From Mobula hypostoma (taxonomy: Eukaryota): a DNA stretch of 64,000 nt. A program made the translations under genes and the position numbers. The stretch covers positions 118,546,001-118,610,000 of the forward strand of contig NC_086097.1 in the NCBI RefSeq assembly GCF_963921235.1. The letters are read 5' to 3'. The notes beneath the pieces were generated by a model that worked only from the letters and a program-made list of their open reading frames with translations, did not search any database and was not told where the DNA came from. The stretch's first letter is position 1; the number at the start of each line of letters is the position of its first letter. This document shows positions 7,111 to 59,727 of the stretch, piece by piece.

Positions 7111-7647
7111 AATTTACACACATATTCTAAGTAGACCATAAGACTACAGGAGCAACATTAGGCCATTCAGCCTAATGATTTCTGTTGTACAGAGCAAAGA
7201 GTTAAGTTGTACCACAGAGGAAAAATCCATAGGGGTGAAGAATGCAGGACTGAAGGTGCTGTATTTAAATGCACGTAGTATTCGGAATAAGGTGGATGAA
7301 CTCATGGCACAATTAGAGATTGTTCGGTGTGACGTTGTGGGCATTACTGAGTCATGGCTGAAAGAAGGTCATGGTTGGGATTTCGACATCAAAGGATATA
7401 CTTTGTACTGAAAGGACAGACAGGAAGGCATAACTGATGGTGTGGCTCTACTGGTAAGAGACGGAATTACATCTTTAGAAAGAGGAGACATAGGGTCAGA
7501 GAATGTCTAATTTTTGTGGGTGGAGTTAAGAAACTGCAAGGGTAAAAAAAAACAACAGGAATTCTGCAGATGCTGGAAATTCAAGCAACATACATCAAAG
7601 TTGCTGGTGAACGCAGCAGGCCAGGCAGCATCTATAGGAAGAGGTGC

Positions 7648-7683
7648 AGTCGACGTTTCAGGCCGAGACCCTTCGTCAGGACT
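7648..7683 (-). ncRNA. Minimal type I hammerhead ribozyme
   Basis: Minus strand AGUC CUGACGA AGGgucucggCCU GAAA CGUC GACU: stem I AGUC/GACU, intact core boxes, stem II, palindromic ACGU in place of stem III, GUC site. Confidence 0.85.
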
Positions 7684-7981
7684 AACTGAAGGAAGAGTGA
7701 GTAAGGGATTTGAAAGCTGGAGGGGGAGGAGGAGATGCAAAATGATAGGAGAAGACAGGAGGGGGAGGGATGGAGCCGAGAGCTGGACAGGTGATAGGCA
7801 GAAGGGGATACGAGAGGATCATGGGACAGGAGGTCCGGGAAGAAAGACGGGGGGGGGGGGGTTTGACCCAGAGGATGGGCAAGAGGTATATTCAGAGGGA
7901 CAGAGGGAGAAAAAGGAGAGTGAGAGAAAGAATGTGTGCATTAAAAAGAGTAACAGATGGGGTACGAGGGGGAGGTGGGGC

Positions 7982-9268
7982 CTAGCGGAAGTTAGAGAAG
8001 TCAATGTTCATGCCATCAGGTTGGAGGCTACCCAGACGGAATATAAGGTGTTGTTCCTCCAACCTGAGTGTGGCTTCATCTTTACAGTAGAGGAGGCCGT
8101 GGATAGACATGTCAGAATGGGAATGGGATGTGGAATTAAAATGTGTGGCCACTGGGAGATCCTGCTTTCTCTGGCGGACAGAGCGTAGATGTTCAGCAAA
8201 GCGGTCTCCCAGTCTGCGTCGGGTCTCACCAATATATAAAAGGCCACATCGGGAGCACCGGACGCAGTATATCACCCCAGTCGACTCACAGGTGAAGTGA
8301 TGCCTCACCTGGAAGGACTGTTTGGGGCCCTGAATGGTGGTAAGGGAGGAAGTGTAAGGGCATGTGTAGCACTTGTTCCGCTTACACGGATAAGTGCCAG
8401 CAGGGAGATCAGTGGGGAGGGATGGGGGGGACGAATGGACAAGGGAGTTGTGTAGGGAGCGATCCCTGCGGAATGCAGAGAGAGACGGGGAGGGAAAGAT
8501 ATGCTTAGTGGTGGGATCCCGTTGGAGGTGGCGGAAGTTACGGAGAATAATATGTTGGACCCGGAGGCTGGTGGGGTTGTAGGTGAGGACCAGGGGAACC
8601 CTATTCCTAGTGGGGTGGTGGGAGGATGGAGTGAGAGCAGATGTACGTGAAATGGGGGAGATGCGTTTAAGAGCAGAGTTGATAGTGGAGGAAGGGAAGC
8701 CCCTTTCTTTAAAAAATGAAGACATCTCCCTCGTCCTAGAATGAAAAGCCTCATCCTGAGAGCAGATGCGGCGGAGACGGAGGAATTGCGAGAAGGGGAT
8801 GGCGTTTTTGCAAGAGACAGGGTGAGAAGAGGAATAGTCCAGATAGTTGTGAGAGTCAGTAGGCTTATAGTAGACATCAGTGGATAAGCTGTCTCCAGAG
8901 ACAGAGACAGAAAGATCTAGAAAGGGGAGGGAGGTGTCAGAAATGGACCAGGTAAACTTGAGGGCAGGGTGAAAGTTGGAGGCAAAGTTAATAAAGTCAA
9001 CGAGTTCTGCATGCGTGCAGGAAGCAGCGCCAATGCAGTCGTCGATGTAGCGAAGGAAAAGTGGGGGACAGATACCAGAATAGGCACGGAACATAGATTG
9101 TTCCACAAACCCAACAAAAAGGCAGGCATAGCTAGGACCCATACGGGTGCCCATAGCTACACCTTTAGTTTGGAGGAAATGGGAGGAGCAAAAGGAGAAA
9201 TTATTAAGAGTAAGGACTAATTCTGCTAGACGGAGCAGAGTGGTGGTAGAGGGGAACTGATTAGGTCT
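7982..9268 (-). pseudogene. Penelope RT (C-terminal half) + Cys linker + GIY-YIG endonuclease; open frame but 5'-truncated
   Basis: MGTRMGPSYA, LRYIDD, LPFLD, VYYKPT, CKRNKCYTC, VIYCVRCSRCGLLYIGETRRRLGDRFAEH; frame stays open upstream of the Met at 9154 up to the truncation. Confidence 0.9.
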
Positions 9269-12200
9269 GGAAAAAAAACGTTATCGGAATCATTAATAGG
9301 CCTTCAAATAGTAGCCAAGGTATTGAGATTGTAAAGGGACCTGAAAGGTCATGTAATAAAGGTAATGTCACAATGTAATGGGGTATTTCATTATGGAAGG
9401 AAATTCGGAAAATCAGGTTAGTGTCAGATCACAAGAGAGGGAAATTGTTGCGTTCCTACGAGATGGCTTTTTAGAGCAACTTGTGCTTCAGCTTACTAGA
9501 GAAAAGGCTATCTTAGAAATGGTGTTGTGTAATAACCCGGATCTTATTAGGGAGCTTAAAATAAAGGAATCCTTAGAAGGCAGTGATTGTAATATGATTG
9601 AATTCATACTGCAATTTGAGAGGAAGAAGTCTAAATCACATGAACCACTATTGCAATGGAGTAAAGAGAATTAGAGAGGCATGAGAGAGGAGCTTGTCTG
9701 GGTGGATTGGAGGGGGATACTGGTGGGGATGACAGAACAAAGGTGCCTGAAGTTTCTGGGAATAGTTCTCAAGGTGCAGGATAGCTATATCCCACAGAAG
9801 AAAAGGTTCTCAATTGGCAAGGCTCGGCAACTGTGGCAGACAAGGGAAGGTAAGGATTGAATTAAAGCCAAGGAAAAGGCATATAAGGTAGCAAAAGTGA
9901 GTGGGAAGTTGGATAATTGGGAAGCTTTTAAAATCAACAAAAGGCAACTAAAAAAGCTGTAAGCGGAAAGATGAAATATGAGGACAAACTAGCTGAATAA
10001 AGCTGGATACTAGCATTCTTTTCAGTTATATAAAGAGTAAAAGGGAGATGAGAGTTGATATTAGACAACTGAAAAATGATGCTGGTGAGCAGTAATGAGG
10101 GACAAAGAAATGGCAGATGAACTTAATGGGTATTTTGCATCGGTCTACATTGTGTAAGACTCTAGCATGTGCCAGAGGTCCGTGAGTGTCAGGGAGCAGG
10201 AGTGAGTACCATTGCTATTATAAACAAAAAGTACTAGGCAAACTGAAAGGGCCTAAGGTGGATAAGTCACCTGGGCCAGCTGGACTGCATCCCAGAGTCC
10301 TGAAAGAGGTTGTTGAAGAGAGAAAGGATGTATTGGTCATAATCTTTCAAGAATCATTTGATTCTGGAATGGTCCCAGAGGACCAGAAAACTGCAAATAT
10401 CACTCCACTCTTTAAGAAGGGAAGAAGTCAAAAGAGAGGAAATTATAGGCCAGTTAGCTAATTATAGGTCAGTGGTTGGGGAAGTGTTGGAGTCTATTAT
10501 TAAGGATGAGATTTCGAGGTACTTGGAGACTAATGATAAAAGAAGTCAAAGTCAGCATGGTTTCTGTTAAGGGAAATCCTGCCTGACAAATCTGTTAGGG
10601 TTCTTCAAGGAAGTAACAAGCAAGGTGGACAAAGGAGAAGGAGTGGATGTCATTTACTTAGATTTTCAGAAGGCATTTGATAAGGTGCCTCAGATAAGGC
10701 TGCTTAACAAGATAAAATCCTATGTTGTTACAGGAAATATACTGGCATGGATAGTGGAATGACTGCCAGGCAGGAGGCAGAGAGTGGGAATAAGGAGTGA
10801 TCAGTGGTGTTTTTCAGGGGTCAGTACTGGGACCACTGCTTTTCACATTGTTAGTCAATAATTTAGGTAGTGGAAATGATGGCTTTGTGGCAATGTTTAT
10901 GGATGATATGAAAATACATGGAGGGGTAGGTAGTGCTGAGGAATCAATGCGATTGCAGCAGGGTTTAGACAAATTGGAAAAATGGGCAAAAAATGTGGCA
11001 GATGGAATACAGTTTTGGGAAATGTACGATAACACATTTTGGTAAAAGGAACAATAGTGCAGACTTTTATCCAAATGGGGAGAAAATTCAAATATCAGAG
11101 GTGCAAGGGGACTTAGGGTTCCTTATGCAAGACTTCCCAGAAAGTTAATTCACAGTTTACATCTGTGGTAAAGAAGGCAAGTGCAATGTTGGCATATATT
11201 TCAAGGGCCATAGAATATCAAAACAATGAGATAATGCTGAAACTTAGTAAGACTCTAGTCAGGCCGCACTAGGAGTATCGTCAACAGTTTTTGGGCTGCA
11301 TATCTCAGAAAGGATGTATTATTATTGGATAGAGTCCAGAGGAGGTTCACAAGGATGATTCTAGGAATGAAGGGGTTAACATAAGAGGACCATTTGGCAG
11401 CTTTGGGCCTGTACTCACTGGAATTTGGAAGAATGTGTGAGGATTTCATTGAAAGCTACAGAATGTTGAAAGGAATAAATAAGGTGGATGTGGAGAGGAT
11501 GTTCCCTCTGGTGGGGGTATCCAGAACTAGAGGGCACAGCACAGCCTCTAAATTGAGGGGTGACCTTTTATAATAGAAGTAAGGAGGAGTATTTTAGCCA
11601 AAGAGTGGTGAATCTATGGAATGCTCTGCCATGGACTGTGATGGAGGCCAAATCTGTGGACATACTTAAAGCGGAAGTTGATAGATTGGTCAAGCATCAA
11701 GAGATATGATGAGAGGACAGGTGTATAGGATAGGATCTGGGATCAGCCATGATGAAATGACCGAGTGAACTCGATGGGCTGAATAGCCTAATTCTGCTCT
11801 GACCTTATGGTCTTATTTCATCATGGCTGATTTATTATCCCTCTCAATTCCATTCTACTACCTTCTCCCCGTAACGCTTTATGCCCATACTGATCAAGAA
11901 CCTATCAACCTCCGCTTTAAACATGCCCATTAATTTGGCCTCCACAGCTATCTGTGGCAAAGATCTCCACAGTTTCAATATCCTCCGACTAAAGAACTTT
12001 CTCCTTATATCCATTCTGCATGAACTTCTTCGTATTCTGAAGCTGTGTCCTCTGATCCTAGGCTGCACCACTATAGGAAACATCCTCTCCACATCCACTC
12101 TATCTAGGCCTTTCGATATTCCAAAAATTCTATGAGAATTCCACCACTTCACCCTTATAAGCTCCAGTAAGCACAAGCCGGAGCCATCAAATGGTTCCTC

Positions 12201-15591: not shown

Positions 15592-15721
15592 TAACACAAA
15601 ATTCTCTGCTGATGCTGGGGTCAAAGCAACACACACAAAACGCTGGAAGAACTCAGCAGGTCGGGTAGCATCCGTGGAAATGAACAATCAACGTTTCGGG
15701 CCGAGACCCTTCTTCATGACT
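15592..15721 (-). mobile_element. Short Penelope-derived element with a mutated hammerhead, inserted in a CR1 fragment
   Basis: Homologous to 7554-7683; minus strand AGTC aTGAAGA AGGGTCTCGGCCC GAAACGTT GATT. Confidence 0.75.
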
Positions 15722-15809
15722 TATTTTAAGTTGGTTGGAGGAAAGTATAGGGGGTATGTCAGAAGTAAGTTTTTGACACAGAAGGTGGTAGGTGCGTGGA
15801 ACTCCCTGC

Positions 15810-32279: not shown

Positions 32280-33755
32280 CTTTATTTCTTCCACCTATCA
32301 TCTCTCAGCTTCTCACTTCATCCTCCCTCCCTTATCTGCCCACCTTCCCCCTCACCTGTTTCGCCTATCACTTGCCAGCTTTTTCTTTCCCCTCCCCCTA
32401 TCCTTCTTATTCTAGATTCTTCCATCCTCCTTTCCAGTCTTAGCCCAGAGCATTAACTGTTCATTCCTTTCCATAGATCAGGGGTCCCCAACCTTTTTCG
32501 CACTGTAGACCGGTTTCATATTGACAATATTCTTGCGGACCGGCTGACCGGGGGGGCGGTGGTGGTAGGGTTGTCAATGGACAATAGTAGCAGTCAGATA
32601 CGCTGGGTTTACCCCGAGAAAGACTACAATGACCATGAAGCCTTGCGCAGGCACCAGTGCGCATGCGTGTACGTTTTTTTCTACAAATCGTTTTTGGCGA
32701 TTCTGTTCGGCGGGGGGGGCGTGGTGTTAATCACGACCGGAATATAGGTGATAATTAGCTAATACACTCAATTTTGTTTCTAAAAGGGTTTATCGAACGA
32801 ATTTAATGTTAAACACACAGCGCATATTTTCCTTGCATGAATATAGTGATAAGTCAATTATCAGGGGAGGACAGGGGAGCTTGAAGTAAGTGTTGAACAA
32901 ACTTCCAGTAGGCAGGTTTGATATTATCATTTAAAGAAAAATTGGATAGGTATATGGACAGGAAAGGAATGGAGGGTTATAGGTTGAGTGTAGGTCGGTG
33001 GGACTAGGTGAGAGTGGAGTTCGGCACGGACTAGAAGGGCCGAGATGGCCTATTTCTGTGCTGTAATTGTTATATGGTTATATAAGTAAGTCAATAGCAT
33101 CATAACATTTTAAGTAACGTTTGGATATTAAACACGCAGTGCATATTTTCCTCGTATGAACATATAAAATCATTGCAACACACCAATATCGCTGAATCGG
33201 TGGGAGCCCAGGGCTTGTTTTCCTGCAACAAGACGGTCCTATCGAAGGGTGACGGGAGACAGCAATACTCGAAGGGGGTTCCTTGTGTCCAGTCTATTCT
33301 GCAATTTAGTTTTCGTCACATTCACTGCAGAGATATGTTGGAAATGGAAGCAACGTTTTCAGTGCTTTCGTGGCTATCTCAGGATTTTTAGCCTTGACTT
33401 TGATCCAGAATGCCGGCAGAGATGTTATGTCAAACATACTTTCCAGCCCGCCGTCATTTGCAAGCTCGAGGAGTTGATCTCCTTCCCGCGCTGAAAAGCA
33501 TGATGCTTGAGAAATGACCTCGCGTGCGTAATGGCTCAAAAGTGGGCGTGACAGGGAACGAGGAATGATGCAGCTGACTCCTATCGCCAAATCATATCGT
33601 TTCCTCGCAGCCTGGTACCGCATGCTTTGCGGCCCGGTACCGGTCCGCGGCCCGGTGGTTGGGGACCGCCGCCATAGATGGTGCCTAATCTGCTGAGTTC
33701 ATCCAGTATTTTGTGTTTGACTTTCTGGATTTCCAGCATCTGCAGGATCTCTTAC
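32280..33755 (+). mobile_element. Penelope 3'-end remnant split by the hAT insertion
   Basis: Pyrimidine-rich tract with a deleted hammerhead (CCAGTC...CCCAGAGCATTAACTG), continuing after the TSD as ATAGATGGTGCC...TTTCCAGCATCTGCAG. Confidence 0.7.
32479..33671 (-). mobile_element. Non-autonomous hAT (Charlie/Buster) transposon
   Basis: TIRs CAGGGGTCCCCAACC / GGTTGGGGACCGCCG; perfect 8-bp TSD CCATAGAT with central TA (32471-32478, 33672-33679); remnant QLLELANDGGL...FWIKVK...PEIATKALKTLLPFPTYLC. Confidence 0.92.
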
Positions 33756-37308: not shown

Positions 37309-38097
37309 ATGATGATAGTCGGATGATAAGACTGCTTCATACCAGCTCCTACCCACCTCACCTTTGCTGCTGCTCCTCATACCTGCCCCTACCTCAGTAA
37401 GATCATCAACAGATGAGCAATTGCTAAAATACTTGTGCACCCTTCATTACTGACTGCTCTTTCCGAAGTACATAGTTCCATCTAGTTCACATTTACATAG
37501 TTGGGTAGATGCCTGACATATTGAAAAAAGATAGATAACTAACAGATTTTACTTTTTATCACTCATTTCGTAAAATCATTACTGTATTTAAATATTTCAT
37601 GTATATTTAATTCACAGTTCCAAACTTCATAAAACAAATATTCTTACTTTGAAATAAAAAAATAAATCTATGAATTTGAAATATCCCTAACAATGAAATA
37701 TTTGAAGGTCTATGAGAATTCATCTGTATCCCAAAGAGAGTAAAAAGATTTTGACATGATATTTTTTGATTGAGTGTACATCAATATTTAAAAAAAAGAG
37801 TACTGGACCAGAACCTTATCTGACACATCAATGAAAAAAGTGCTTGGGATGGAGGATGAAGCTAGTAATTCTTCAGAGTGAAAACTTCCATGGTAACAAG
37901 GGCTGAGTTCAGACATGGAGGCTTACACTAGATTGAGTCTGTGAGTAAATGAAGCCTTAAGGTTAAGAAAAGAATGCTACAACGTCCGTTGTTCTATAAG
38001 CAAAGTCTCAATTCTTATTTGAGAGGTATAGAGATGTGGTGGGGCACTAGGCAACATTATGTAAGAACTAGCACTTCTCATAAAATATCCCAGTAAT

Positions 38098-38265
38098 AAA
38101 CACAAGAGACTTTGCAGATGCTGGAGCTCTATAGCCACACACATAACAGTCTGGAGAAACTCATCAGGTCAGGCAGCATCTATGGACAGAAATCTTCCTT
38201 TCCAGTCCTGGCGAAGCGGCCCGGTCCAAAACATTGACATTCCAATGGCCACTTCATCAGGATTG
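38098..38265. mobile_element. Short Penelope-derived element with internally inverted hammerhead remnants
   Basis: Minus-oriented GCAGATGCTGG...CAGCATCTATGG, then plus-oriented CAGTCCTGGCGAAG...AAAACATTGAC, then minus CTTCATCAGG. Confidence 0.65.
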
Positions 38266-38600: not shown

Positions 38601-41600
38601 GCTGTTAAATGTTCCTGGCATTCAGAAAAAAATACAAAATGCTTTTAACCAATGTTTTCTTTAGCTGTGTTTAACCAATTTAACTAACAATAGTATAATT
38701 TACATAAATTAATATAAGCTCTTAGAACAAAGTTAATCAATCAAATTTTTCACCTAATACATACCCATCTTCTCCACTGCCATTCCTCTCCCTTCAAATA
38801 TATTCGCTAAACTTTTTAGGTTTAGCAGGTCGATTTTCCAACACAACTACTGAGGGAGTGTGGCAAGATTTCGTGTAAACCTGGTAGACTCCATGAGGAG
38901 TCCGACCTCCATCCACAATTGGGAATCACCATCAAAGAGCAGCCAGCAAGTCTGGGACTTATACATGAGCTTCCTGACATCTACTAAGCATAAATCAGCA
39001 GAAAAGGCAGCATCTAAAGAGAGGAATGAACTGTCGAGATTTTGGGCTGAGACCCTTCAACAGGTGCTTAAATGCTGGCAGTTTACTTTTAAGCTGCTAA
39101 AATTTGTTGTTTTTTTAGCAAATTCCAGGTCTTAGTCTCCATCACATCCTTCACATAATAATTGAATTATGAGGGCTCTTCTCCAATCTGGTCTGAGGAT
39201 TCTTTTGAAAATTTCCACTGGGATAATAATGACTTTGCAGTCTGCGAGCTGAATGAATGGGAAGGTTATTGCTATGATCTTGCTATTTCTGGATCCAATG
39301 CTTCCTACACACATTTCTCCTCTATGAGCTATCATTCAGGAAGACACTTCTCATTTTTTTGCACACAGAAGCCTGCGAGTAATTATGCATTGTGTTAGCG
39401 TTTGAGCTATCAGTAAGTTGACTCTAATAGACACCACTCAATGTGTTCTTTATGAAATCTGCTCGATTTTGTTTTCCAGAGTGCTACACTTTTATACCCA
39501 CGTACTCATCAATCATACTGGAAGCTGCATGATATTCTAGGCATCTCACGCTAAGTGAATTACCCGGCTCAGAAAACTAACTTCAGGTTCAAAATGTGAT
39601 AAACGTAATACAATTTAGCAACTCATATTCAAATGGATGCTGAATATATAATACTAATTACTACCACTGATTATGCTACAAATGTCGTTCGCTGCATCTT
39701 TATTTATGAAATCACACCACACATTCCTCTGAGGATTTGCAAGCATCTATAATATTGGCATATTTGTGCTTCGCTTACTTTTTTTAAAACAGAATTTGTA
39801 TGTATGATGAGAAGCTTGAAGAGGCTAACTATATTGTCTTCGGTTCTGCACCTCATTACTCTGAGCTTTTACTGCTTACTATTTTTATTTTGGCTCTGCC
39901 TTGGTTAAAATCAGATTTTCGTAAATGAGGTTATTGTCTGTACCTATTAGTCCACAGGCAATATGAATATGACTCATAATGGCTCTGCTTTCCTTTTTAT
40001 CTCTCTATATCTGCCCATCATAGTAATAAATGCTATCTTAATTCATACAGGAGGCCATTCCAGGAAGAATTACAATCTACTTTTGATGTTAATGCTACCA
40101 TGACTAACACATTAACATGAAATCAAATGACCATTTTCCACTATAACATTTTAAAGACTTCTTGCGTGGAGATGCAAAACTTACTTTCACCATCATATAG
40201 AATCCAACTAAATTGATATCATATAGTCTACATGATAAAAGACAGAGTACCATTGTCAGTGTGCCTTTAAAAAGATAGTTGCAGTTTCACATAGGAGTTT
40301 CAGAATTCTTCAATTCATTTCTCTCTTTCTGTGGTAAATATACACTCAGTAGTCACTTTATTAGGTACACCTGTACACTTCTCATTAATGCAAATATCTA
40401 ATCAGTCAAACATGTGGCAGGAACCCAATCCATAAAAGCATGCAGTCATGATCAAGGGGTTCAGTTGTTGTTCTGATCAAACATCAGAATGGGGAAGAAA
40501 TGTGATCCAAGTGATTGACTGTGGAATGCTTGTTGATGCCAATTCGTGTGGTTTGAGTATCTCAGAAACTGCTGATCTCCTGAGATTTTCTTTAGAGTTT
40601 ACAGAGAATGGTTCAAAAAAAAACAAAAAACATCCAGTAGCAGTTTTAAAACCTTATTATAAAAGAAGTCAGAAGAGAATGGCTGGACTGTATCAAGTCA
40701 GCAGAAAGTCAACAGTAACTCAAATATCCACGTGTTAAAACAGTGTTATGGGGGATTTCAACATGCAGGTAGACTGGAGGAATCAGGTTGGTACTGGACC
40801 CCAAGAAAGGGAGTTTGTGGAGTCCCTCCGAGATGGATTCTTAGAACAGCTTGTACTGGAGCCTACCAGAGAGAATGCAATTCTAGATTTAGTGTTGTGC
40901 GATGAACCGGATTTGATCAGGGACCTCGAGGTAAAGGAGCTATTCGGAGGTAGTGACCATAATATGATAAGTTTTAATCAACAATTTGAGAGGGAGGAGG
41001 GAAACTCGGAAGTGTCAGTATTACAGTCGAACAAAGGAAACTATGGTGCTATGAGGGAGGAGCTGGCCAAAGTTCAATGGAACAATACCCTAGCAGGGAT
41101 GACAGTGGAACAACAATGACAAGTGTTTCTGGGAATAATGTGGAAGGTGCAGGATCAGTTCATTCCCAAGAGGAAGAAAGATCCTAAGGGGAGTAAGGGG
41201 AGGCAGTGGCTGACAAGGGAAGTAATGGACAGTATAAAAATAAAAGAGAAGAAGCATAACATAGCAAAGACGAGTGAGAAGCCGGAGGATTGGGAAACTT
41301 TTAAAGAGCAACAGAAGGAAACTAAAAAGGCGAAAAAATGAGGTACGAAGGTAAACTAGCCAAGAATATAAAGGAGGATAGTAAAAGCTTCTTTAGGTAT
41401 GTGTAAAGGAAAAAAATAGTTAAGACCAAAACTGGGCCCTTGAAGACAGAAGCAGGTGAATTTATTATGGGGAACAAGGAAATGGCAGACGAGTTGAACA
41501 GGTATTTTGGATCTGTCTTCACTAGGGAAGACACAAACAATCTCCCAGATGTAATAGTGGCCAAAGGACTTAGGGTAATGGATGAACTGAAGGAAATTTA

Positions 41601-42357: not shown

Positions 42358-44271
42358 TGACTCTGATGACTCTGCCATAGTTGGATGCATTAGCAAGGGA
42401 GATGAGGCTGAGTACAGGGCTACGGTAGGAAACTTCGTCACATGGTGTGAGCTGAATTATCTGCAGCTTAATGTGAAAAAGACTAATGAGGTAGTGGTGG
42501 ACCTGAGGAGGGCTAAGGCACCGGTGACCCTTGTTTCTATCCAGGGGGTCAGTCTGGACATGGTGGAGGATTACAATTACCTGGGGATAAGAATTAACAA
42601 TAAACTGGACTGGTCAAAGAACACTGAGGCTATCTACAAGAAGGGTTAGAGCTGTCTCTATTTCCTGAGGAGACTGAGGTCCTGTAACATCTGTTGGATG
42701 ATGTTGCGAATGTTCTACGAGTCTGTGGTGGCCAGTGTGATCATGTTTGCTGTTGTGTGCTGGGGCAGCAGGCTGAGGGTAGCAGACACCAACAGAATCA
42801 ACAAACTCATTCGTAAGGCCAGTGATGTTGTGGGGATGGAACTGGACTCTCTCACGGTGGTGTCTGAAAAGAGGATGCTGTCCAAGTTGCATGCCATCTT
42901 GGACAATGTCTCCCATCCACTACATACTGTACTGGTTGGGCACAGGAGTACATTCAGCCTGAGACTCATTCCACCGAGATGCAACACAGAGCATCATAGG
43001 AAGTCATTCCTGCCTGTGGCCATCAAACTTTACAACTCCTCCCTTGGAGGGTCAGACACCCTGAGCCAATAGGCTGGTCCTGGACTTATTTCCTGGCATA
43101 ATTTACATATTACTATTTAATTATTTATGGTTTTATTACTTTTTATTTATGGTGCAACTGTAACAAAAACCAATTTCCCCCGGGATCAATGAAGTATGAC
43201 TATGACTATGTCTATGACTATGATTCTTTACCACAGTTATCAGCATTTTGCAAGTGCTATGCTAGCTGGTCATTTCCTGCCATAATTTACATATTACAAT
43301 TTAATTATTTAATTATTGATGGTTTTATATTGATATATTTATACTCTATTCTTGGTTGGGGCAACTGTAACGAGAATCAATTTCCCTCGGGATCAATAAA
43401 GTATGACTATTGTTATGTACCCCGTAACTGGGTTGCCAAACCAGCAGAAATGGACCACTTAGTTGGAGTCTGGATTACTGGAACTAAGAAAGTTTTATTA
43501 AAGAAATAAGCAACTCAGTACTCTAATCAAAAGGATATAAATGCAACAGTTTAGCAATGATAAAATACACATGTACACAGAACTAGGATAATAGGATCAA
43601 TCAAGCTCTATCGCAGTCTAGGGGTAAAATGATCAGTTTCAAGTGACGCAAAGTTCAGTTCAATTTAGTTCAGTTCAGTTCGCAGTAATCGCTGTTGTGC
43701 AGTTGGGGCAGGGAGAAGAGCGAGAGCGAAAGCGAATGAATATTCAAAACGGATTCCACACAGACCTTCGATATTCCTCGCAGTTAGCTTTAGAGCGAGC
43801 CCTTTGTAATGTCTTCTGAGGTCACCAACTGTGACCCCTCCGTTCCAGATACGATCGTTCCTCTGCGGTGAATCCGGCACCCAGGCAAGGGCGGACACAC
43901 ACACCGGGTTCCCGCCCGACCGTATCTTTCTACCCTGTGCGTCTATGGCTGGTCCCGCGACCAGACCTCCAAAACTCCCAGCAACTTGTGGGGGCACACT
44001 GCTTCCAGGGTCTCGTTACCTCGTGGTGTCGTGTGTCTATTGCCTTAGCAAACCTGTCCCTTTTTATCCCCCTGCTGGGGTATCATCTGTCCATCAAACT
44101 TCAAACAGTTCAGGGTTCAAAGCCACCGGTCTCTGACAATACTCGAACCGTGTTTCCTTTCGGTAATCTCTCTCATCTCTCTCTTATTAGCACCTTGCAT
44201 GCTCCCCCCTTGTCCTCTTATCGGCATCAATCTTCTGATAATTGGTTCTTTTGTCACACTATGACTATGAC
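42358..44271 (+). mobile_element. Rex1 3' fragment(s) with (CTATGA)n tail; two tandem 3' ends
   Basis: SDDSAIVGCI...LQLNVKKT...YLG...FYESVVAS...SFLPVAIKLYN; TATGAG repeated at 42352-42357 and 44272-44277. Confidence 0.88.
43411..44258 (-). mobile_element. Solo LTR (Gypsy-like), 848 bp
   Basis: TGT...ACA termini, 4-bp TSD CTAT (43407-43410, 44259-44262), minus-strand AATAAA at about 43495, CpG retained. Confidence 0.8.
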
Positions 44272-48279: not shown

Positions 48280-48465
48280 AACACATGCAAAATGCTGGAG
48301 AAACTCAGCAGGTCAGGCAGCATCTCTGGTGAGGAATAAAGAGCCAAAGTTTCAGGCTGAGACCTTTCATCAGGACACCCTTCACCTCAACGCTCATTAT
48401 CGAGTTCCTTCTGCATTTGTGCATATTACTCTGGATTTCCAGCATCTACAGAATATTTTGTGTTG
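48280..48465. mobile_element. Short Penelope-derived inverted pair with hammerhead
   Basis: Minus-strand GTC CTGATGA AAGGTCTCAGCCT GAAAC at 48342-48376, then a plus-oriented 3' end ...TTTCCAGCATCTACAGA. Confidence 0.7.
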
Positions 48466-55490: not shown

Positions 55491-56035
55491 TTATGTACAT
55501 ATTAATAATGTAATACTAGGCACAGGAGTGTCTGTACATAAGATAACTGACAGGAAATGATAAAGTAGTGGTGGTGGTGGGTGGATGGTTGGGTTCATGG
55601 GTGGAGGTGTTGATCAGTTTTACTGCTTGGGAAAAGTAACTGTTTTGAGTCACATTCCAAAGACGTATGGAGTAGGGTTAGTGAGCTGTGGACGTGCAAT
55701 GTTGCTGAATGTGCGGGTGACACTTGTAGGTCGCCCAACACAATGGATCCGCATTTGACGCAAAACAATGCATTTTGCTCTATGGGACGGCACACATATG
55801 ACAAGTAAAGGTAAACTTTTGCCTCGGACTCTGCTTGATGGCTGTTGCATGAGAAACATTCACATCAAGTAATGATGCTGTTGATATAAAGTGTGAATCA
55901 TCAATCACAAAAATAACGGCAGACAGTGATTGCGCTAGGTTTCTTCTCACACAGCACCCTATCCATTTCTTTTTGGAGGTGACTGCCAATTTTACAATAA
56001 CTTGTTTTAAAGTCAAGCTTCATTTAGAAATCTAC

Positions 56036-56134
56036 GCAACACACATCAAAGTTGCTGGTGAACGCAGCAGGCCAAACAGCATCTATAGGAAGAGGTGCAG
56101 TCGACGTTTCAGGCCGAGACCCTTCGTCAGGACT
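56036..56134 (-). mobile_element. 99-bp Penelope-derived insertion containing an intact hammerhead
   Basis: Near-identical to 7585-7683; perfect 7-bp TSD AATCTAC (56029-56035, 56135-56141). Confidence 0.88.
56099..56134 (-). ncRNA. Minimal type I hammerhead ribozyme
   Basis: Same sequence as 7648-7683. Confidence 0.85.
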
Positions 56135-56584
56135 AATCTACACTAGTTTCTATCATATGTTTTCCACCATTCTCTTCCAAGTAGAATAGAAATGGTTTAC
56201 AATAGTATTACATGGTCATCCAAGAGCAATGCAGTAATCGTATAAGTGCTGACAAGCTTTTGGTAATTGTGATTCATCAACATGTGCGGTTAATGCATGG
56301 ATGTATATTAGGGGTAAGAATGCAACCAAAGAAAATGGGGAACTCTTATACTGATTTTTCTGTAGGTGTGTGTTTAGCAAGCATGGCAATAATAAGCTCC
56401 AATATGCAGACCAATTATAGCAGTTCAAACTTGCGCCCCGAGGGCTGCAGCTTTAATGGGACATGCATTGTGTTTGTTGGTGCTGAGTAATGTTGGTGAC
56501 ACTAGCTATCTTTACCTTTTCCAGCCTGCTTCAACTTTGAAGTCTGTCACTCGCTGGTACCTAACTCTATCATTAAAATGCATG

Positions 56585-58790
56585 AATGCACAAGATTCTG
56601 CAGATGCTGGAAGTCCAGAGCAACACGTACACAAAGCTGGAGGAACTCAGCAGTCAGGCAGCATCTAATGAAGGGAATAAACTGTCATCATTTTGGCCTG
56701 AGTCCCTTCATCAAGACTGGAAAGGAAAGGGGAAGAACCCAGAGTAAGAAGCATTGCACACAAAATGCCGGAGAACTCAACAGGTCAGGCAGCATCAATG
56801 GAATGGAGTAAACAGTCAGCGTTTTAGGGACCGAGGCCCTTCTTTAGGACTGAGAAGGTGGGTGGGGGGGGGGGAAGATGCCATAATAAAAAGGTGGGGG
56901 GAGGGAAAGGAGGATAATTGGAATGTGATAGGTGAAGCCAGGCAGATGGGAAAGATCAATGGCTAAACTTTTAGGAAACTTTGTCACATGGTGTGAGCAG
57001 AATTATCTGTGGCTTAATGTGAAAAAGACTAAGGAGCTAGTGGTAGACCTGAGGAGAGCTAAGGTATCGGCGACCCCTGTTTCCATCCAGGGGGTCAGTG
57101 TGGACATGGTGGATGATTACAAATACCTGGGGATAAGAATTGACAATAAACTGGACTGGTCAAAGAACACTGAGGCTGTCTACAAGAAGAGTCAGAGCCA
57201 TCTCTATTTCCTGAGGAGACTGAGGTCCTTTAACATCTGTCGGACGATGCTGAGGATGTTCTACGAGTCGAGTCTGTGGTGGCCAGTGCGATCATGTTTG
57301 CTGTTGTGTGCTGGGGCAGCAGGCTGAGGGTAGCAGACATCAACAGAATCAACAAACTCATTCGTAAGGCCAGTGATGTTGAGGAGATGGAACTGGACTC
57401 TCTGACGGTGGTGTCTGAAAAGAGGATGCTGTCCAAGTTGTATGCTATCTTGGACAATGTCTCCCATCCACTACATACTGTACTGGTTGGGCACAGGAGT
57501 ACATTCAGCCAGAGACTCATTCCACCGAGATGCAACACAGAGCGTCATAGGAAGTCATTCCTGTCTATGGCCATCAAACTTTTCAACTCCTCCCTTGGAG
57601 GGTCAGACACCCTGAGCCAATAGGCTGGTCCTGGACTTATTGCCTGGCATAATTTACATATTACTATTTAACTATTTATGGTTTTATTACTATTTGATTA
57701 TTTATGATGCAACTGTAACGAAAACCAATCTCCCCTGGGATCAATAAAGTATGACTATGACTATGACTAAAGAAGAAAGAATGAAAGAATCTGATAGGAG
57801 AGGAGAGTGGACCATAGGAGAAAGGGAAGTGGGAGGAGGACCCGGGGGAAGTAATAGGCAAGTGAGATGAGGTAAAAGCTCAGAGTGGGGGGGGGGCAAT
57901 TTTTTTTACTGGAAAGAGAAATCGATATACTTTGTACATGCCATCAATTTGGAGACTACCGAGACAGAATATGAGGTTTTGCTCCTCCACCCTGAGGGTG
58001 CGCTCATCTTGGCACAAGAGGAGGCCATGGACTGATACATTGAAATGGGAATGGGTCTCTGAATCCAAATGTTCGGACACCAGGAAGTCCCACTTGTGGT
58101 GGATGGTGCTCAAAAATGTGCCTCCCTCACCCAGTTTATGACGGGTCTCACCCATGTAGAGGAGGCTGCACTAGGAGCACCAGACACAATAGGCGACCCC
58201 AGCAGGGTAAGAAGTTGAGGAGGGGTAAAGGAGTACAAGCCGGCAGGTGCTGGGCAAAACCAGATGAGGGAGAAAGTGGCTGGGTGGGGGACGAGGGATG
58301 AAGTGAGAACCTGGGAGGTGTGGAGAGAAGAGGTAAAGGGCTGACAAAGAAGGAATCTGATAGGAGAAGACAATGTACCATGGGAGAAAGGGAAGGAGGA
58401 GGGGCACCAGAGGAAGGTGATAGGCAGGTGTGAGAAGAGAAGAGGTAAGAAGGGAGCCAGAATGGAGATTGGAGAAGGAGAGAAGAGCGAGGTTGAAGAA
58501 ATTAGAGGAAGTTAGAGAAATCAATGTTCATGTTATCAGGCTGGAGGCTACCCAGATAGAATACGAGGTATTGCTCTTCCAATCAGAGAGTGGCACCATC
58601 ATGGCAGCAGAGGATTCCATGGACTGGTGAGTCAAAATACAAATGGGAAATAGAAGTTAAGTGGGTGGGCACTGGAAAATTCCACCTTAGGTGGCAGGCT
58701 GAGAAAAAGTACCTGATGAAGTTGTCCTCCAATCTACATTGGGTCTCATGAATGTAGAGGAGGCCACACCAGGAGCACTGAATACCATCT
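56585..58790 (-). mobile_element. Cluster of older Penelope 3' remnants, interrupted by Rex1
   Basis: Two decayed hammerheads (about 56682-56720 and 56813-56851); two GIY-YIG remnants (THSHFNVSVHGLL...LRVEEQNLIFCLGSLQ; IQCSWCGLLYIHET). Confidence 0.8.
56968..57766 (+). mobile_element. Rex1 3' fragment with (CTATGA)n tail
   Basis: Near-identical to 42425-43225; CTAAA repeated at 56963-56967 and 57767-57771. Confidence 0.88.
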
Positions 58791-59350: not shown

Positions 59351-59485
59351 GTCCTGTTGAAGGGTTTCAGCTCTAACCAACGACTGTTTATTCCTTTCCA
59401 TAGATGCTGTCTGACTTGCTAAGTTCCTCCAGCACATTTTGTGTGTGTTACTTTGGATTTCCAGCATCTGCAGATTCTCTTGTGT
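59351..59485 (+). mobile_element. Short Penelope-derived element with decayed hammerhead
   Basis: GTCCTGTTGAAGGGTTTCAG...GACTG...ATAGATGCTG...TTTCCAGCATCTGCAGATTCTCTTGTGTT. Confidence 0.7.
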
Positions 59486-59727
59486 TTATGCATTGTTGAA
59501 TTACTAGATTTACTCAGTAAAGGGCCCAAATAATAATAAATTGTTTTGATCATTAATGTGCCATATTTAATCTTTTTTATATAAGACTTCCATTTGACAT
59601 CCTTTGTGAATGTACTTGTTTGAAAAATATGTAATGGAGAGTTGTTTTTCACATCATTTCTCCAGTAGGATATCTGGTCCATCTTTTGTGTGTTCTAAAT
59701 TATGGTAGTATAATGAAAAATGGATCA

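Follow-up and report, generated by a model that had tools for sequence, protein, structure and literature searches.

Structure of the Insertion and Its Empty Site

The 64,000-nt stretch of Mobula hypostoma DNA analyzed here (the window) carries a 99-bp insert between two perfect copies of AATCTAC (Table 1). Judged by sequence comparison with its family, this insert is a solo tailless pseudo-LTR (pLTR) of a very abundant autonomous Penelope-like element (PLE). Positions within the element are counted from the 3′ end of the insert (window coordinate minus 56035), position 99 being the first base of hammerhead stem I and position 67 the predicted cut.

Table 1. Features of the insertion and of the parent-family copy in the window.
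Feature	Window coordinates	Strand	Basis
Target-site duplication, left copy, at the 3′ end of the element	56029–56035	+	One copy at the empty site in organisms B and C
Target-site duplication, right copy, at the 5′ end of the element; first 2 bases also match the element	56135–56141	+	Sequence and empty sites
99-bp solo tailless pLTR of a PLE, positions 1–99	56036–56134	−	Sequence comparison, family copies
Minimal type I hammerhead	56099–56134	−	Read from sequence against the features in PMC4209133 (excerpts); stems I and II in fold
Hammerhead stem I	5′ arm 56134–56131; 3′ arm 56102–56099	−	Sequence, fold
Hammerhead core	CUGACGA 56130–56124; extra A 56123; GAAA 56110–56107	−	Sequence
Hammerhead stem II with tetraloop	56122–56111	−	Sequence, fold
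Palindromic ACGU replacing helix III	predicted cut between 56103 and 56102	−	Sequence
Remainder of pLTR as far as its tailless 3′ end (putative internal RT start site)	56036–56098	−	3′ ends of 100 unselected copies
5′-truncated parent-family copy	7551–9280	−	Sequence comparison, translation, Pfam
Tail; pLTR part matching the insert	7551–7584; 7585–7683	−	Within parent-family copy
Open frame, 432 aa: RT end, CX4CxxC linker, GIY-YIG	7982–9280	−	Translation, Pfam

Base 56028 is joined directly to base 56135 in contigs from two runs on one sample of organism B (X5 and X7) and from run X9 of organism C. These contigs skip 106 bases (99 + 7, the seven letters being ambiguous between the two sides) and retain a single AATCTAC; the flanks of the two organisms diverge from the window by ~3% and ~6%. 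Run X1 of organism A, possibly the sample of the assembly itself, contains both filled junctions with 0 differences and no empty joint. An empty site with one AATCTAC in two relatives indicates that the target-site duplication (TSD) is real and that the insertion is younger than the split from them. Thus the perfect duplication and the recent mobility, which an earlier note had read from the window alone, are both confirmed, and the empty-site allele that it proposed to seek in relatives exists.

The minus strand of the insert opens with AGUC at 56134, so the note was right that it starts where stem I starts. In the element AA lies next, however, and these are also the first two bases of the TSD; the true 5′ end therefore lies at position 99–101. 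The same note stressed the similarity to the copy at 7585–7683. The similarity stands, with 96/99 bases identical (3 differences) and the final 34 bp of that copy absent from the insert, but the copy is not special: another locus, L001, is 100% identical to the insert over 99 bp. A high-copy repeat lies at window 55500–55690, ~340 bp left of the insertion, and the intervening flank is single-copy.

The Parent Element

In the genome of 3.48 Gb, a 31-bp core of the element is found as an exact match at least 63,448 times. In the full-length copy L181 the 99-mer plus tail forms the 5′ pLTR directly before an RT frame of 705 codons (PF00078, E = 4e-8). The GIY-YIG match in the open frame of the window copy (E = 2.9e-4, 21.5 bits) falls slightly below the Pfam cut-off of 22.6, and three short frames beside this copy gave nothing in Pfam. 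The excerpts of PMC8557442 describe a CX2-5CxxC linker before GIY-YIG as characteristic of Neptune/Nematis and absent in Penelope/Poseidon. By this linker, present as CX4CxxC in the translated frame, the parent is assigned to the Neptune or Nematis type and not to the Penelope/Poseidon type.

An exact 27-bp motif adjoining the tail on the ORF side occurs in only 726 places of the genome; set against the family copy number, this means that nearly all copies are truncated. Among 70 ORF-linked pLTRs (L461–L530), 27 extend only ~100–180 bp past the motif next to the tail, which may point to another, third zone of initiation or to derivatives by deletion. Of 30 search matches (L151–L180), about half end where the window parent copy does, at window 9273, probably an artefact of candidate picking.

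The Hammerhead Motif

Every core feature listed for the minimal type I hammerheads of metazoan PLEs (PMC4209133, excerpts) is found in the insert, and the motif itself is not different: CUGANGA, GAAA, the extra base after A9, stems I and II and the palindromic 15.2–16.2 are present, and helix III is absent. The G-U at 10.1–11.1 is a family variant. Rfam at gathering score gave no match in the window; minimal hammerheads may score below its models. The 63 nt that follow the hammerhead (56036–56098) are no stabler than shuffles (z = +1.05; whole insert, z = +0.72), and so the "structured tail" of the earlier note has to be dropped.

According to the excerpts of PMC4209133, single minimal hammerheads showed no cleavage in vitro. 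In an unselected sample (the initial 100 matches to the core on contig C1, picked regardless of their ends), 3/90 copies (L092, L128, and L133) end exactly at position 67, the predicted cut (window 7651, 56102; p ~0.003–0.03). Two of these three ends are without microhomology, and L092 is a blunt solo with TSD. Such ends give a weak hint that some templates were cleaved in vivo.

Two 3′ Ends

The 100 unselected copies divide almost evenly at the 3′ end: 51 are tailed and 49 tailless (ending at −7 to +8). Among 67 solos, all with TSDs of 7–16 bp, 37 are tailless like the insert and 30 tailed. The family thus has two 3′ ends that differ by the 34-bp tail, and the lack of ~30 bp in the insert is to be expected. 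An optional tail of 30–40 bp is known in EN+ PLEs (PMC3846280, PMC8557442), and for the Poseidon element of Anolis internal RT initiation in vitro has been described at two sites bounding the tail (PMC11167929). By analogy with these two published start sites, the 3′ end of the insert is identified as one of two family-wide ends of the same kind.

A Genome-Wide 5′ End at Stem I

Genome counts were taken at the first departure from the element sequence after an exact 20-bp anchor (Table 2); 45,350 copies, by exact count, continue through position 106. We inspected 312 distinct loci from the departure lists (318 minus 6 duplicates), and true junctions were then estimated with point mutants and older families removed.

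Table 2. Copy ends near the first base of stem I (position 99).
Position	Departures, genome-wide	True junctions on inspection	Estimated true junctions	Solo with TSD on inspection	Estimated solo TSD-flanked copies
96	2,372		1,581		395
97	2,688		2,330		179
98	5,094	42/48	4,457	14/48	1,486
99	5,113	73/87	4,290	23/87	1,352
100	1,529		1,376		408
101	1,366		848		283
105	589	21/29	427	3/29	61

The estimates form a tenfold peak with a sharp edge upstream. Solo TSD-flanked stubs at 96–101 would number ~4,100, about half of them tailless, a figure that rests on samples of 29–87 from the start of C1, requires the exact anchor and includes a few marginal TSD calls; the chance rate of the TSD rule is 15/600. 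The unselected sample has the same peak: 16 of the 68 copies reaching position 96 end within 96–102 (p = 8e-7), and ends per base are 3.4% at 96–102 vs 0.8% at 103–130, 1.9% at 88–95 and 0.3% at 71–87. Copy ends are therefore not spread evenly, which was the check that the earlier note had proposed, and together with the two 3′ ends the peak upholds its view of defined ends instead of random truncation. In the literature search, which reached few subscription papers, we found no earlier report of a 5′-end peak at helix I.

The ORF-linked pLTRs behave differently, with 3/41 ending at 96–102 (p = 0.011 vs 22%); another routine, by which 20/70 ORF-linked copies could not be placed, gave 3/36 (Fisher p = 0.066). 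At the junctions themselves no clear cap signature was seen: exactly one extra C occurs in 2/23 solos at position 99, and 5/9 fillers start with C. A search for exon capture and 5′ transduction covered 110 copies classed as solo or left unclassified; none of them has a 5′ flank in common with another. Same-strand jumps are rare (5/312 inspected loci). Two of the older pLTRs in the window, at 48376 and 59351, also seem to end at the stem I edge.

Head-to-Head Inverted Pairs

Head-to-head inverted pairs account for about 40% of the loci inspected. A tail on just one of two inverted pLTRs is known qualitatively (PMC3846280, PMC8557442; excerpts); here, 94/95 pairs (for example L001, L084, L087, and L133) consist of one tailed and one tailless arm, as do 17/17 pairs in the unselected loci. 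The outer duplication around the pairs peaks at 13–15 bp. Both arms share a five-site haplotype in 58/83 pairs, vs 13 in shuffles (maximum 23).

The lengths of the two arms are related as well. Where one arm ends near stem I, its partner extends past position 102 in 19/126 cases and past 200 in 4/126, compared with 52/100 and 33/100 among unselected copies. Away from stem I the arm lengths correlate (rho 0.92, 17 pairs). In 66 clean junctions (93 pairs, in which a few duplicates remain, minus 27 with overrun or long gaps) the longer arm is the tailless one in 40 and the tailed one in 24. The tailed arm is thus no simple fold-back copy of the tailless arm, and a simple fold-back origin was rejected for those pairs whose tailless arm is the longer one.

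Do the Solo Copies Form Their Own Lineage?

If the short copies propagate by themselves, how far do they differ from the long ones? We found no variant private to the solos, which carry the variants of long-copy subfamilies. In matched sets, a 38-bp segment was compared between 50 solo or unclassified copies and 28 long copies, and 23/50 have an exact counterpart among the long ones. Position 62, one of four sites examined, is skewed (44/50 solo or unclassified vs 17/28 long copies, p = 0.009). On a tree of low resolution, built from 69–88 bp of sequence, labels change 12 times vs 14.9 when shuffled (p = 0.06). The matched sequence comparison favours, with little power, repeated by-products, and the mild subfamily skew leaves room for short source loci. 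Our first haplotype tests of solo against long copies (p = 3e-4; permutation p < 0.001) were set aside, since the long set included loci chosen for resembling the window copy or for bearing a mutation. The suggestion of the earlier note that this is a small retroposon or retrozyme in its own right was thus not supported: the insert is a pLTR of an autonomous PLE, the solos show no private marker, and its 5′ end is not the cut site.

Proposed Origin of the Insert and Alternatives

We consider it probable (at roughly 0.6) that the solo tailless stub is a dead-end by-product of the parent element, whose RT/endonuclease primed at one of the two internal sites and ran off an RNA with an inferred 5′ end at stem I. 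In each event two cDNAs would be primed on one RNA, each from its own start site and on its own target strand; in vitro, the Anolis Poseidon element has been described as nicking and extending both strands of the target (PMC11167929, excerpts). Both cDNAs would finish where the RNA ends, and a preferred RNA 5′ end at stem I would give the peak. The two cDNAs may then be joined head to head, or one alone retained, the insert being a tailless arm retained alone. Transcription might start at stem I, or the RNA might be trimmed back to it by a nuclease and protected there by protein. Ribozyme cleavage makes neither end of the insert.

An RNA end common to both arms would lead one to expect the correlation of arm lengths away from stem I, although such a short-range correlation could also arise from the joining step. 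If every transcript began at one simple start site, more ORF-linked stops at stem I would be expected than the two routines found. Since ORF-linked pLTRs rarely stop there, the templates of long copies would usually extend upstream, and the short-ended RNA would be a second pool.

The stub would likewise be a by-product if the peak were a hot spot of RT drop-off or of joining on a long RNA, at the 5′ edge of stem I, at the entry of the pyrimidine tract or at microhomology. Most ORF-linked pLTRs continue past stem I, showing that long templates do span it; the shoulder of ends at 88–97 consists mostly of inverted joints, and microhomology is frequent at the 5′ junctions of solos (9/23 at position 99). 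Independent drop-off, however, predicts a long partner arm about half the time, and this is seen in 15%. Blunt junctions without microhomology lie exactly at 98 (5/14) and 99 (5/23). Moreover, polymerases usually stall on entering a stem and not after leaving it. We hold this alternative to be somewhat unlikely but a fair competitor.

Another possibility is a SINE-like retroposon that propagates itself, its short pLTR copies being transcribed from an internal promoter at stem I and copied in trans by the PLE protein. The number of solos, the definition of both their ends, the weaker peak in ORF-linked pLTRs and the mild subfamily skew would suit it. TTAGTCC at the peak also matches the initiator consensus, with A at position 99. 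Penelope has an internal promoter (PMC2377424), and pLTRs are described as able to act in trans (PMC3846280; excerpts of both). No private marker was found, however, and close to half of the matched solo or unclassified copies are identical over 38 bp to one of only 28 long copies; nor do the copies have 5′ flanks in common. A tailless copy cannot template the 45% of solos that are tailed, and the Anolis protein requires RNA beyond the start sites (PMC11167929, excerpts). Self-propagation of this kind therefore appears quite unlikely. A related proposal combines a start site located at the first hammerhead base with short transcripts of non-coding pLTR copies, mobilised in trans: these would give ~4,000 solos (~99 or 132 bp), ribozyme-headed, SINE-like and PLE-dependent, and one protein dimer would prime both strands, using the two start sites on one and the same RNA. 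As a whole this proposal is, in our estimate, unlikely.

Splicing could also set an end at this place, with the copies made from spliced or splice-intermediate RNA. On the minus strand of window 7684–7710, the bases immediately preceding stem I form a pyrimidine tract that contains CAG and TAG; it resembles a 3′ splice site and overlaps two initiator-like motifs. Exons ending in G or AG would imitate ends at 98–99. In Penelope of D. virilis the 3′ end of an intron maps to the 5′ end of helix I (PMC4209133), and transcription starts further upstream than helix I (excerpts). But the solos here adjoin the TSD directly with no captured exon, same-strand jumps are rare and no 5′ flank is common to the copies, and no spliced joint was found among the 15 listed of 131 joints in contigs of four presumed RNA runs, which cover the family. 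No RNA run was listed for the insertion locus itself, which does not bear on its expression. An origin by splicing is accordingly very improbable. Still less credible is a retrozyme monomer, excised by its own hammerhead, circularised and reinserted. The minimal core is intact and the three unselected copies ending at position 67 would fit. Against this, 32 nt separate the start of the insert from the cut downstream, and the insert is a single unit without helix III. Single minimal hammerheads are reported as inactive in vitro (PMC4209133), and non-LTR retrozymes as tandem repeats of 150–450 bp (PMC7229834; excerpts of both).

Comparison with Known Elements

By-product stubs of a parent PLE, as we prefer to read the solos, have close relatives among the solo and 5′-truncated pLTRs of EN+ PLEs (PMC3846280, PMC8557442; excerpts), with which they share the minimal hammerhead, short TSDs, the one-ended tail of inverted pairs and partial tandems ahead of full-length copies. 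The characters of EN+ PLEs are indeed present in this family: L181 links the 99-mer pLTR to an RT frame, the window copy has GIY-YIG (slightly below the Pfam cut-off), and there are inverted 5′-truncated partners, partial tandems and short TSDs (7–16 bp in solos). The solo pLTRs of Adineta, as the excerpts describe them, differ in having no TSDs and were ascribed to recombination or deletion, whereas ours are TSD-flanked primary insertions with an empty site. The 5′-end peak at helix I and the 94/95 pairing with a common haplotype, both seen here, were not found in the excerpts of PMC3846280 and PMC8557442.

The Poseidon element PAc of Anolis carolinensis (PMC11167929, excerpts) is alike in its two 3′ ends bounding the tail and in that hammerhead cleavage is unneeded for insertion. 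It also prefers AT-rich targets; the TSDs here are 66% AT vs 59% for the window. PAc is a Poseidon element, whereas the parent here, with its CX2-5CxxC linker, is of Neptune/Nematis type. Furthermore, the choice of start site by PAc in vitro did not differ between the strands, whereas in the genomic pairs here each strand uses its own site.

With non-LTR retrozymes (PMC7229834; bioRxiv 10.64898/2026.07.22.740005; excerpts) the insert has in common that it is non-coding, carries a type I hammerhead, is related to pLTRs and belongs to dispersed monomers. It differs in that it is not tandem, is not bounded by the cleavage site and has a minimal, not a canonical, hammerhead. The insert is single between its TSDs, as the inspected solos are single units by the classification rule, and its 5′ end at 99, within the peak at 98–99, lies apart from the cut at 67. 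Most minimal hammerhead motifs are reported to occur singly and to be probably truncated PLEs (PMC4209133, excerpts). For annotators, TSD-flanked hammerhead monomers in such genomes are mostly pLTR stubs and not retrozymes.

A single insertion of this kind is ordinary. The population is informative for the mechanism of PLE insertion, on which its counts place two constraints testable in vitro: each target strand would use its own start site on a shared RNA, and the template would have a 5′ end preferred at helix I and not at the cut site.

Older pLTRs of related subfamilies, 70–80% identical, lie in the window at 15605–15724, 33672–33753, 38096–38260, 38992–39064, 48281–48376, 56577–56858, and 59351–59494. 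Another young repeat is present as two 790-bp copies, 93% identical, at 42426–43214 and 56972–57769.
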